Shown one piece after another: positions 60,081 to 61,703 of a stretch of DNA of 64,000 nt; positions within the stretch are counted from its first letter, which is position 1, and the number at the start of each line of letters is the position of its first letter. Location: NCBI RefSeq assembly GCF_054482525.1, contig NZ_CM137006.1. One strand, 5' to 3'. The notes below the pieces were generated by a model. The model saw nothing but the letters and a program-made list of their open reading frames with translations. It had not been told where the DNA came from and did not search any database. The translations under genes were made by a program, and so were the position numbers.

Positions 60081-60257
60081 TCTCTCCCCTTCCCCGGTCG
60101 CCTGACCGGGGAATACTCTTCCTCTGCAAAATGCATCACCTTTTCACATAATATTAAACAAATAAACTCATTAAAAAATGAGCGATTTTTGACAGTCGTA
60201 GAAAATGATAATGCAGAGAATATGCCTTTTCTTTCTTGTTAATTATAAGGATATTTC

Positions 60258-61550
60258 ATGCGCTATAATGGTTTAAATAATATGTTTTTTCCTCTTTGCC
60301 AGATTAACGATAACCACTCTGTCACAAGTCCATCACATACAAAGAAAACAAAATCAGATAATTATAGCAAACATCATAAAAACACGTTAATTGACAATAA
60401 AGCCCTCTCTCTTTTCAAAAAAGATGATCATGAAAAAGTGATAGGCTTGATTCAGAAAATGAAAAGATTTTATGATAGTTTGCCATCAGGAAAAATCACG
60501 AAAGAAACGGACAGGAAAATACATAAACATTTTATAGATATAGCTTTATATGCAAATAATAAATGTGACGATAGAATTACGAGAAGAGTTTACCTTAGTA
60601 AAGAAAAGGAAGTGTCCATTAAGGTGGTATATTTTATAAATAATGTCACCGTCCATAATAATACTATCGAAATCCCACAGACAGTAAATGGTGGTTACGA
60701 TTTTTCACACCTTAGCCTGAAAGGTATCGTGATTAAAGATGAAGATTTATCCAATTCGAATTTTGCAGGTTGCAGACTACAAAACGCTATTTTCCAGGAC
60801 TGTAATATGTATAAAACGAATTTTTATTGCGCCATAATGGAAAAAATACTTTTTGATAATTGTATTCTCGATGACTCAAATTTCGCTCAGATAAAAATGG
60901 CTGACGGAACTCTAAATGCTTGCTCCGCTATGCATGTTCAATTCTTCAATGCAGCAATGAATAGAGCCAATATTAAAAATACCTTCCTTGATTATTCAAA
61001 TTTTTATATGGCGTACATGGCTGAGGCAAATCTTTATAAAGTAATAGCGCCATATGTTAATTTATTTAAAGCCGACCTTAGTTTCTCTAAACTCGATTTA
61101 ATTAACTTTGACCATGCTGATCTGTCTCGCGTCAATCTGAACAAAGCAATCCTCCAGAATATAAACTTAATTGATAGCAAACTCTTTTTTACGCGGCTGA
61201 CAAATACATTCCTCGAAATGGTTATATGTACCGGCTCTAATATGGCTAATGTTAATTTTAATAATGCCAATTTAAGCAACTGCCATTTCAACTGTTCTGT
61301 TTTAACAAAAGCCTGGATGTTTGATACCCGTCTCTATCGGGTTAATTTCGATGAGGCTAACGTGCAGGGAATGGGCATTTCCATTCTCCGTGAGGAGGAA
61401 AATATCCCCATTAATAGTGATACCCTGATAACACTACAGAAATTCTTTGAAGAAGATTGTACCTCTCATACTGACATATCACAAACTGAGGATAATATTC
61501 ATGCAGTCGCTATGAAGATTACTGCAGATATTATGCGAGATGCAGATTGA
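60258..61550 (+). CDS. yjcF: Pentapeptide-repeat protein YjcF, 430 aa, function unknown, AT-rich
   Basis: Repeated A(N/D)L(S/T)xAx-type pentapeptide tracts in C-terminal half; strongly AT-rich codon usage. Confidence 0.8.
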   Translation: MRYNGLNNMFFPLCQINDNHSVTSPSHTKKTKSDNYSKHHKNTLIDNKALSLFKKDDHEKVIGLIQKMKRFYDSLPSGKITKETDRKIHKHFIDIALYANNKCDDRITRRVYLSKEKEVSIKVVYFINNVTVHNNTIEIPQTVNGGYDFSHLSLKGIVIKDEDLSNSNFAGCRLQNAIFQDCNMYKTNFYCAIMEKILFDNCILDDSNFAQIKMADGTLNACSAMHVQFFNAAMNRANIKNTFLDYSNFYMAYMAEANLYKVIAPYVNLFKADLSFSKLDLINFDHADLSRVNLNKAILQNINLIDSKLFFTRLTNTFLEMVICTGSNMANVNFNNANLSNCHFNCSVLTKAWMFDTRLYRVNFDEANVQGMGISILREEENIPINSDTLITLQKFFEEDCTSHTDISQTEDNIHAVAMKITADIMRDAD

Positions 61551-61644
61551 GGTTAAGCCGAAGAACAGCCAATGAATTGACTTTAAAAGAGAGATAACTT
61601 ATTTGTTTTAGAATCATGTATGTTAGCCCGAGCTAACCTGTTAA

Positions 61645-61669
61645 AGGTGCAAAAGATTGCACCTTTTTC
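61645..61669 (+). terminator. Terminator hairpin aggtgcaaaagattgcacct + T5 after yjcF
   Basis: Inverted repeat and T-run read from sequence. Confidence 0.55.
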
Positions 61670-61703
61670 AAATTACCTCGGGCCTGGTTACGTCGCTTTC
61701 GGC

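Follow-up and report, generated by a model that had tools for sequence, protein, structure and literature searches.

Within the window, by which we mean the whole 64,000-nucleotide stretch of DNA analyzed here, an open reading frame of 430 amino acids with an ATG start lies between actP (TIGR02711, 1144 bits) and yjcE, which encodes a CPA1 Na+/H+ antiporter (Table 1). The frame corresponds exactly to the RefSeq coding sequence yjcF (WP_001270114.1) of Escherichia coli PCN033 (100% match). Orthologs are annotated as yjcF or espX5, including ECs5048 (EspX5) of O157:H7 Sakai and the K-12 gene b4066; for some alleles, the RefSeq product name is "T3SS effector pentapeptide repeat protein EspX5." The ORF is therefore a known, catalogued accessory gene of E. 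coli. Its product passed the gathering thresholds of two Pfam models, Pentapeptide_4 (PF13599; 1.8e-21, 76.4 bits, cutoff = 38) and Pentapeptide (PF00805; 8.5e-20, 70.4 bits, cutoff = 20.2), and is a member of the pentapeptide repeat protein superfamily. ORF, Pfam matches, and neighbor annotation all agree with the sequence-only reading, which had placed a 430-amino-acid pentapeptide-repeat gene between actP and yjcE. A Shine-Dalgarno-like AAGGA motif is located 6 nt 5′ of the ATG (~60247 to 60251, read off the junction alignment). The K-12 and Sakai proteins are orthologs from the same actP-yjcE locus, also 430 amino acids long, that differ from the window protein only allelically, with the differences concentrated in the C-terminal tail (K-12, 92% amino acid identity, 34 of 430 residues different, 96% nucleotide identity). 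Alleles at least 99% identical to that of the window were detected in just 4 of 5,426 complete E. coli genomes. No paralog of yjcF was found within the window; the yjbI/espX4 locus lies outside it.

Table 1. Coordinates of the features of the yjcF locus, numbered from the first nucleotide of the window
Feature	Position	Strand	Basis
Left flank, 3′ end of the actP transcription unit, with perfect 10-bp hairpin (60090-60099 / 60104-60113)	60081..60116	+	Inverted repeat I12
yjcF-specific low-GC islet, ~1.5 kb	60117..61623	.	Junction alignments against HB42 and ST131; GC
AT-rich upstream region and 5′ leader of yjcF, including AAGGA	60117..60257	+	GC
Imperfect 20-nt direct repeat, left copy	60125..60144	+	Family D3
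yjcF / espX5 CDS	60258..61550	+	430 aa plus stop; RefSeq match
Residues 1-49, basic, predicted disordered	60258..60404	+	pLDDT 22-44; composition
Residues 50-146, orphan N-terminal region, two predicted helices then linker	60405..60695	+	pLDDT; Pfam; search of the region alone
Residues 147-371, 45 uninterrupted repeats, ~11 predicted coils	60696..61370	+	Pfam; register; AlphaFold; Foldseek
Residues 372-430, acidic C-terminal tail, two low-confidence helices	61371..61547	+	Composition; pLDDT
Right flank, imperfect hairpin with 27-nt arms, in the gap between yjcF and convergent yjcE	61626..61683	.	Inverted repeat I1
Imperfect 20-nt direct repeat, right copy, inside the right-flank hairpin	61648..61667	+	D3; I1

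The coding sequence occupies most of a low-GC islet found only in one of three states of the actP-yjcE site, which carries yjcF, an lrgAB-like/LysR trio, or an 81-bp empty site. The left flank is near-identical between the window and MG1655 (one substitution) and ~90% identical in the alternative state of B2 strains, and alignment similarity between the locus states ends after ~60116. The islet sits between two conserved hairpins. That on the left lacks a T-run and was not called by the terminator scan. The core of that on the right, AAAGGTGCA...TGCACCTTTTT, is also present in the empty site of strain HB42 (junction alignment) and may act as a bidirectional terminator. The two copies of the direct repeat (15 of 20 positions identical, 1523 nt apart) bracket the islet; two-copy repeats of this length are frequently chance matches, and this pair stands out solely for its position at both borders. 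Apart from this weak repeat, no identifiable donor or mobility vehicle was found for the islet: the site contains no integrase, IS element, or tRNA, and the plasmid and phage collections searched held no true copy of yjcF. Seven plasmid-collection records with full-length yjcF (0.37 to 4.9 Mb) were rejected as chromosomes under a wrong label or pieces of chromosomal size; all phage matches and the other plasmid matches were confined to the repeats. The promoter and terminator consensus scan found no excess over shuffled expectation, with no enrichment of promoter sites in the upstream region (8 versus 6.3 expected), and an Rfam scan of the islet returned a chance U4 match alone (E = 0.9).

The GC content of yjcF is 0.339 (GC3 = 0.332), compared with 0.55 to 0.57 for acs, actP, and yjcE (GC3 = 0.66 to 0.67); its GC3 is thus half that of the flanking genes, as expected from the AT-richness noted on first inspection of the sequence. 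In 400-nt windows, GC ranged from 0.29 to 0.40 within the islet versus 0.53 to 0.58 outside, with 0.362 in the left intergenic region (60081 to 60257) and a mean of 0.530 for the whole window. Across the complete E. coli genomes, yjcF was present in 4,120 of 5,426 and absent or replaced in 24%. It was found at 100% coverage and 95 to 100% nucleotide identity, with the same neighbors actP and yjcE, in 4,097 genomes. B2-type strains lack yjcF and have in its place the lrgAB-like/LysR trio, which is of native GC content and was counted in 1,038 genomes; the site is empty in a few strains such as HB42. Outside E. coli, no ortholog was detected among one-genome-per-species representatives, where the sole match was a 235-bp contaminant contig. 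That scan used exact-peptide patterns, which orthologs below ~85% identity could escape, and the absence of yjcF from other species rests mainly on searches of two large protein collections. No full-length relatives below 86% identity were detected in the collection of 5.8 billion proteins, nor among the matches listed for that of 1.8 billion. A HMMER search with the full protein found no paralogs among the best 150 matches, which were dominated by giant multi-repeat proteins. The sequence-only reading had proposed horizontal acquisition. Low GC3, the lack of the gene in 24% of E. coli and in all other species scanned, and alternative contents of the site all point the same way. Because neither a flank-like GC content nor universal presence in E. 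coli relatives was found, this interpretation stands, and yjcF looks horizontally acquired.

The 45 pentapeptides of YjcF are consecutive and share one register (score of 60.5 versus 9 to 23 for the other four). AlphaFold predicted a confident beta-helix at residues 150 to 370 (pLDDT 84 to 98 over residues 150 to 350) with periodic short strands, and Foldseek matched the model to HetL, MfpA, QnrB1, and AlbG with a probability of 1.00. The predicted structure is a right-handed quadrilateral beta-helix with four repeats per coil, and the right-handed beta-helix forecast from the repeats alone is thereby supported at the level of modeling. This helix is nearly neutral (net charge −3, pI 5.8), residues 1 to 147 are basic (net charge +10, pI 9.6), and residues 373 to 430 of the tail are acidic (net charge −9, pI 4.25). 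The N-terminal region is modeled at a pLDDT of 22 to 66, with helices at residues 55 to 73 and 82 to 96 predicted at moderate confidence and the linker after them poorly predicted. No Pfam domain was detected in residues 50 to 146. When searched alone, the N-terminal region and the C-terminal tail each matched E. coli YjcF fragments only; both termini are orphans, with no relatives outside E. coli yjcF. YjcF contains no hydrophobic segment (top Kyte-Doolittle 19-residue mean = 0.92) and hence neither a Sec signal peptide nor a transmembrane helix.

In both sequence and structure, the repeat domain was matched best by cyanobacterial pentapeptide proteins (HetL, the Rfr family, and Np275/276). 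The HetL model scored 63.7 bits (cutoff = 260; Foldseek, 1.2e-10) on the repeat consensus only, and HetL-type proteins belong to unrelated organisms and lack the regions that flank the repeats in YjcF. All NCBIfam equivalog models fell far below cutoff, including that of Hailong HalA (22.9 bits, cutoff = 250), and a PADLOC defense-system scan assigned YjcF to no family. Comparison with Qnr, MfpA, and PipB2, which the sequence-only reading had offered as a guide to function, failed in that role: the models are below cutoff, and fold matches of this kind are common to all pentapeptide proteins.

Seven sampled alleles, spanning 4 to 5% nucleotide divergence, were compared for selection. The dN/dS ratio of yjcF was 0.34 overall. 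The 20 allele pairs that were informative gave values of 0.23 to 0.55, of which 19 lay significantly below 1. The ratio was lowest for the helix (0.22), followed by the N-terminal part (0.43); the tail evolves fastest, with a ratio of 0.79 and variation at 17 of 58 positions. None of the 24 variable helix residues falls in the central pentapeptide slot. yjcF is under purifying selection, helix core included, and its product is kept foldable.

Together, these results suggest, at somewhat better than even probability, that yjcF is a single-gene, AT-rich islet of non-B2 E. coli that is quieted by H-NS and encodes a non-enzymatic beta-helix rod. The islet of ~1.5 kb is an insert in the gap that separates the convergent genes actP and yjcE, confined to non-B2 lineages, and H-NS would keep yjcF transcriptionally quiet. 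In the K-12 literature, yjcF is a standard H-NS-bound ChIP locus, and a 615-bp H-NS-bound promoter island at yjcF/actP overlaps a predicted genomic island (PMC3661553). By analogy with these K-12 papers, we infer that H-NS also silences the gene in the strain from which the window derives. The predicted rod consists of a disordered, basic, lineage-specific N terminus, a beta-helix of ~11 coils, and an acidic, quickly changing tail. Its most likely mode of action would be that of a rigid binding or mimicry surface, in which outward-facing helix residues and the tail engage another macromolecule; the cellular compartment of this action is one that we infer. The fold is conserved in lineages without an injectisome, and the maintained function is therefore probably independent of the LEE type III system.

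The name EspX5 leads to a different explanation, in which YjcF is a genuine type III effector, delivered by the LEE system where present or historically by ETT2. The disordered N terminus would be the secretion signal, residues 50 to 146 would serve for chaperone binding or for targeting to a compartment of the host, and the beta-helix and acidic tail would contact a host protein in the way that PipB2 engages kinesin-1. We regard this as unlikely, if still worth serious weight. The name has denoted a candidate effector since 2006 and is used by RefSeq and about 80 genome-survey papers. The first 30 residues are predicted to be disordered and resemble type III secretion signals in composition (43% Ser/Thr/Asn/Pro/Gln, one acidic residue), although such features are not diagnostic. 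The gene is AT-rich and H-NS bound, like most effector genes, and its surface and tail evolve fast. Enterobacterial pentapeptide domains with N-terminal extensions include real effectors, namely, PipB, PipB2, SopA, and NleL, and the beta-helix of NleL is a structural match to YjcF (Foldseek, 3e-4). PipB2 and PipB of Salmonella SPI-2 resemble YjcF in having a non-repeat N-terminal region, then the repeat domain and a short C-terminal segment, and they were near the top among functional NCBIfam families (models NF011743 and NF011744; PipB2, 46.7 bits, cutoff = 354; PipB, 36.9 bits, cutoff = 274). However, these scores reach 13% of the cutoffs, and the models align to the repeats only (PipB2 profile positions 172 to 327). 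A further difference from these effectors is that no LFNEF motif was visible in the C terminus of YjcF.

The relatives implied by the name do not strengthen the case. EspX1 (ECs0025), EspX4/YjbI, and EspX7 (= NleL) were named together with EspX5 as candidate effectors and, like yjcF, are AT-rich E. coli genes that all contain some pentapeptide repeats. The best BLASTP matches of YjcF among them, YjbI (E = 2e-5) and EspX1 (E = 0.005), share 21 to 30% identity with it over the repeats only, and EspX1 and YjbI do not match each other. In YjbI, unlike YjcF, the repeats are N-terminal and precede a SopA central domain (PF13981, 6e-56). The pentapeptide domain of EspX1 reaches just 18 bits, and YjcF contains no SopA central domain and no HECT domain. 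With no common non-repeat domains and with differing architectures and Pfam content, the "EspX family" is, by sequence comparison, not a homologous family.

Genome counts and the published record also argue against delivery. The LEE genes escN-escV were detected in 697 genomes, compared with 4,120 for yjcF, so that at least 3,423 carriers (at least 83%) lack LEE. In K-12, yjcF is intact while the ETT2 region consists of successive pseudogenes, and K-12-like lineages with degraded ETT2 keep the gene intact and under purifying selection. By the genome counts and the state of K-12, yjcF mostly occurs without a functional injectisome. In favor of the historical ETT2 variant, the ETT2 remnant ygeGH is of the same order of frequency as yjcF when totals only are compared (3,579 versus 4,120 genomes), and Ren et al. 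are said to have found in 2004 that ETT2, like yjcF, is absent from B2. A literature search found no report of injectisome-dependent secretion or translocation of YjcF. Ogura 2007, from which we deduced the experimental status of EspX5, summarises 39 Sakai effectors identified by experiment, and EspX5 is not one of them; of the 32 identified non-LEE effectors in that study, just three are encoded outside prophages (EspY1, EspX2, and EspY4; Table 4 therein), and EspX5 is missing. The one effector screen that included EspX5 (Weigele 2017) did not obtain its expression. The product name "T3SS effector" is a homology-based candidate label and no established property.

A silenced relic, i.e., a foreign gene switched off by H-NS, functionless today and persisting through its low cost, would also account for H-NS binding at yjcF. 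It would further fit a dN/dS ratio that is 20 to 30 times that of the neighboring genes and near neutral in the tail, the truncated alleles on complete chromosomes and one allele with a 30-amino-acid in-frame deletion, and the absence or replacement of the gene, without evident effect, in 24% of genomes. We nonetheless consider a relic quite improbable. The 430-codon frame (1293 bp) is intact in seven of seven alleles examined despite a stop chance of 7.4% per codon at this composition, at which 430 stop-free codons would arise by chance with a probability of ~4e-15. The ratio is significantly below 1 in nearly every informative pair, and substitutions spare the structural core of the helix completely, the mark of a protein obliged to fold. 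The truncated alleles and the elevated dN/dS ratio suggest that the function may be weak or conditional, or may have disappeared already from part of E. coli.

Qnr, MfpA, AlbG, and McbG form right-handed quadrilateral beta-helices of about 9 to 11 coils, similar in length to that of YjcF, and four proteins of this kind matched the model (MfpA, QnrB1, AlbG, and EfsQnr; Foldseek, 1e-5 to 1e-7). YjcF could accordingly be imagined as a cytoplasmic DNA mimic that binds DNA gyrase or topoisomerase IV and modulates or protects it. A C-terminal helical segment is predicted in YjcF, and in Qnr/MfpA-type proteins a C-terminal helix mediates dimerisation. Among ASKA over-expression screens, those for the waking of persisters and for tolerance to oxidants had yjcF as a hit, a hint at some intracellular activity, although these hits are list entries without follow-up. 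The hallmarks of the Qnr/MfpA group are an acidic, DNA-like surface and, in Qnr, loop insertions that interrupt the helix. We consider a mimic of this type very improbable, given that the Qnr, MfpA, and Qnr-subfamily models scored 17 to 35 bits against cutoffs of 240 to 490 (NF033086, 35.3 bits, cutoff = 240; NF000349, 21.1 bits, cutoff = 360), that the uninterrupted repeats lack the two surface loops on which Qnr activity depends, that a near-neutral helix is joined to a basic N-terminal extension of 147 residues where an acidic surface would be expected, and that the C-terminal helices are low-confidence predictions in the least conserved part of the protein.

We tentatively entertain one further reading: YjcF may be the founding member of an Escherichia-specific beta-helix class that acts inside the bacterium once H-NS silencing is lifted, rather than an injected effector. 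A macromolecule of bacterial or phage origin would then meet the helix surface and acidic tail as a decoy or adaptor, and YjcF would be tethered to nucleic acid or membrane by its basic N-terminal region. If so, the virulence call "T3SS effector EspX5," widely repeated in genome surveys, would be an annotation artifact. The description of yjcF as poorly characterized is correct in that the gene has no established function, and our literature search found no experiments on the protein; it is incorrect in that the gene is long catalogued, as EspX5 since 2006 and as an H-NS-bound locus of K-12. The gene itself is accordingly nothing new in the window, and the practical point is one of annotation. 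Kept foldable by selection, YjcF is one of the better-defined E. coli accessory proteins that lack an assigned function. As a virulence marker, espX5 is uninformative because it occurs in three-quarters of E. coli, including K-12, mostly without an injectisome, and because its homology to proven effectors is that of the generic repeat only and it is off the list of experimentally identified effectors.

The ORF studied here corresponds exactly to the RefSeq CDS yjcF (WP_001270114.1) of E. coli PCN033, with 100% identity across the region. The sequence-only reading had described an AT-rich, 430-codon pentapeptide-repeat ORF between actP and yjcE, and this description was confirmed throughout by the ORF list, the RefSeq match, Pfam, and the base composition relative to the flanks (GC = 0.339 and GC3 = 0.332, versus GC = 0.55 to 0.57 and GC3 = 0.66 to 0.67 for acs, actP, and yjcE). 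At the composition of yjcF, the chance of a stop-free frame of this length is about 4e-15. YjcF scored far over threshold with the Pfam pentapeptide models. When residues 147 to 371 were read in fives, one register scored 60.5 and the remaining four 9 to 23, so the protein contains 45 unbroken repeats, or about 11 coils.

Features of the actP-yjcE gap and of comparison loci from other genomes (L002, L003, L005); positions are those of the window unless a locus is named
Feature	Position	Strand	Remarks
yjcF CDS	60258..61550	+	430 codons, ATG start; ORF list
AAGGA motif	6 bases 5′ of yjcF ATG	+	from junction alignment
acs, yjcH, actP	5′ of yjcF	+	same strand as yjcF
yjcE	3′ of yjcF	convergent	Na+/H+ antiporter gene
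Post-actP hairpin	60090-60113		perfect 10-bp GC-rich stem
yjcF-specific DNA	~60117-61623		islet
Right-border hairpin	61626-61683		long, imperfect
Direct repeat	60125-60144 and 61648-61667		imperfect, 20 nt, 15/20 identical; flanks islet
Gap, yjcF state	60081-61703
Gap, trio state	L003 9820-11900
Gap, empty state	L002 2282-2362
K-12 yjbI (EspX4)	L005 6704-8284		pseudogene

The gap between actP and yjcE is a hotspot that takes three states across complete E. coli genomes. The yjcF islet occupies it in 4,120 of 5,426 genomes, and a trio of LrgB-family, CidA/LrgA-family, and LysR regulator genes with native-like composition (GC = 0.51) in 1,038, ST131 and O18 strains among them; in a few strains (e.g., HB42 and SBF22) the site is empty, with actP and yjcE only 81 bp apart. 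Together with the GC3 contrast, this distribution upholds the earlier suspicion of horizontal acquisition. Junction alignments placed the left border directly after the hairpin 3′ of actP, which is common to the yjcF and trio (B2) states, and the right border at a hairpin common to the empty site; these borders delimit the yjcF-specific DNA. The bracketing direct repeat, whose right copy sits within the hairpin also found in the empty site, may be a scar left by insertion or a coincidence; at this length it has no evidential weight. The site lacks an integrase, an IS element, and a tRNA, and searches of plasmid and phage collections returned no genuine copy that would identify a vehicle. Seven PLSDB "plasmid" records with yjcF (H90-H96; 0.37 to 4.9 Mb) represent misfiled chromosomes, whole or in part. 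The post-actP hairpin has no T-run and drew no call in the terminator scan; read-through from acs-yjcH-actP into yjcF is therefore conceivable.

Full-length relatives of YjcF were confined to E. coli (≥86% identity) in a search of 5.8 billion proteins, below which came matches of about 30% to the repeats only, in cyanobacteria and other organisms. An exhaustive HMMER search of 1.84 billion cluster representatives agreed with this result: among the matches listed, all that touched residues 1 to 147 or 375 to 430 were YjcF fragments. Used as separate queries, the N-terminal 147 and C-terminal 59 residues matched nothing beyond E. coli YjcF fragments, and neither region contains a Pfam domain. 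When bacterial genomes were scanned at one per species, the single match was a 235-bp contaminant contig at 0.9x coverage. This contig (NZ_JAPWGW010000108.1, locus L007), from a Henriciella marina assembly, encodes a product 95% identical to E. coli YjcF residues 287 to 363 and is almost certainly E. coli contamination. The GTDB representative of E. coli is a B2 strain, which would account for the lack of a match in E. coli itself.

yjcF already has a name and an annotation and serves as a reference locus for H-NS, and earlier work has recorded that it is foreign and silenced: in K-12, the DNA between yjcF and actP forms a 615-bp "promoter island" that is associated with H-NS and overlaps a predicted genomic island (PMC3661553). 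We are highly confident in identifying yjcF as the known accessory gene yjcF/espX5 and in describing it as what appears to be a horizontally acquired, H-NS-bound, single-gene islet limited to non-B2 E. coli. RefSeq splits its alleles between "yjcF: pentapeptide repeat-containing protein" and "espX5: T3SS effector pentapeptide repeat protein EspX5," a choice that apparently depends on the allele even for same-locus orthologs (L004 and L009-L013, from other genomes); the window strain's allele bears the neutral name. About 80 papers list espX5, for the most part virulence-gene surveys. The sole functional mentions of yjcF come from ASKA library overexpression (persister waking on alanine and an oxidant-tolerance list), in keeping with the earlier statement that no function is established.

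The second name implies that YjcF is a true type III effector, as does the description of ECs5048 of O157 Sakai, which is EspX5, as a "putative effector" encoded on an island that K-12 also has (PMC5931665). This label is weakened on four counts. First, the "EspX" proteins do not form a homologous family: YjcF matched EspX1 with a best E-value of 0.005 and YjbI/EspX4 at 2e-5 (21% identity, repeat on repeat), and pairwise comparison of EspX1 with YjbI gave no match. EspX1, unlike YjcF, hardly scores as a pentapeptide protein. In YjbI the N-terminal repeats precede a SopA-like central domain that YjcF lacks, which makes YjbI a HECT-less SopA/NleL relative unrelated to YjcF outside the repeats; the K-12 copy is a pseudogene in which this domain is recognizable (PF13981, 6e-56). 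Second, the PipB2 and PipB models reached 13% of their own cutoffs on YjcF, aligning to repeats only. Third, Ogura et al. 2007, with coauthors from the group behind the EspX nomenclature, state that 32 non-LEE proteins had been identified as secreted effectors, and the non-prophage effectors of their Table 4 are EspY1, EspX2, and EspY4, EspX5 not being among them (PMC2323221). In the sole effector screen that included EspX5, expression of the protein was not obtained (PMC5599653, supplementary table 1). Fourth, LEE injectisome genes (escN-escV) occur in 697 genomes versus 4,120 for yjcF, so at least 83% of carriers have no LEE, and K-12 has an intact yjcF beside an ETT2 region that is a string of pseudogenes. 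We consider a true effector unlikely; that the effector or virulence-factor label of espX5 is poorly founded is a point of wider use.

Between the window strain and K-12, dN/dS was 0.39 for yjcF, 0.017 for actP, and 0.011 for yjcE. Among seven alleles the 1,293-bp frame was intact in all seven, and pairwise dN/dS (0.23 to 0.55) was significantly below 1 in 19 of 20 informative pairs. Regional values were 0.22 for the helix, 0.43 for the N-terminal part, and 0.79 for the tail; of 24 variable helix residues, none lay on the inward central slot, 3 on i-2, and 21 on the three outward slots. This looks like a protein obliged to fold, its surface free or driven to change. Because the fold constraint persists in lineages without an injectisome, YjcF may have a maintained function independent of the LEE injectisome, a proposal we advance tentatively. 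Some complete chromosomes carry truncated yjcF ORFs: protein records P0219, P0228, P0068, and P0004, comprising N-terminal ORFs of 91 to 99 aa and a 359-aa form, lie on 4- to 4.9-Mb contigs and hence reflect disrupted alleles. Another E. coli record (P0003; 400 aa) has lost in frame exactly 30 residues within the helix (six pentapeptides, 1.5 coils), which fits repeat-mediated slippage with the register preserved. These truncations and the six-repeat deletion show yjcF to be dispensable in some lineages, as a silenced relic would be; given the intact frames and the constraint on the helix, we regard a relic as quite improbable. yjcF is a clean orphan kept by selection and worth a translocation and pull-down test.

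The right-handed beta-helix anticipated from the repeats was recovered very confidently by AlphaFold (pLDDT 84 to 98, residues 150 to 350), in a model built on a shallow alignment. Foldseek against the PDB returned HetL, designed pentapeptide solenoids, MfpA, QnrB1, AlbG, and EfsQnr, with the NleL beta-helix weaker; because the fold is generic to all pentapeptide proteins, such matches cannot separate functions, and the proposed comparison with Qnr, MfpA, and PipB2 adds nothing. A Qnr/MfpA-like topoisomerase-binding DNA mimic, to which these matches might point, is very improbable, as family models, missing loops, and charge distribution are all contrary: the helix is near-neutral (net charge −3), the N-terminal region basic (+10, pI 9.6), and the C-terminal tail acidic (−9, pI 4.25). 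We favor a rod-shaped beta-helix protein, non-enzymatic and lineage-specific at both termini, that would serve as a rigid surface for binding or mimicry; as a whole, this explanation of yjcF is moderately probable. YjcF has no hydrophobic segment and therefore lacks both a Sec signal peptide and a membrane anchor. Outside the rod, AlphaFold predicts disorder for residues 1 to 49, two moderate-confidence helices at 55 to 96 followed by a poorly predicted linker, and two low-confidence helices at 387 to 429.
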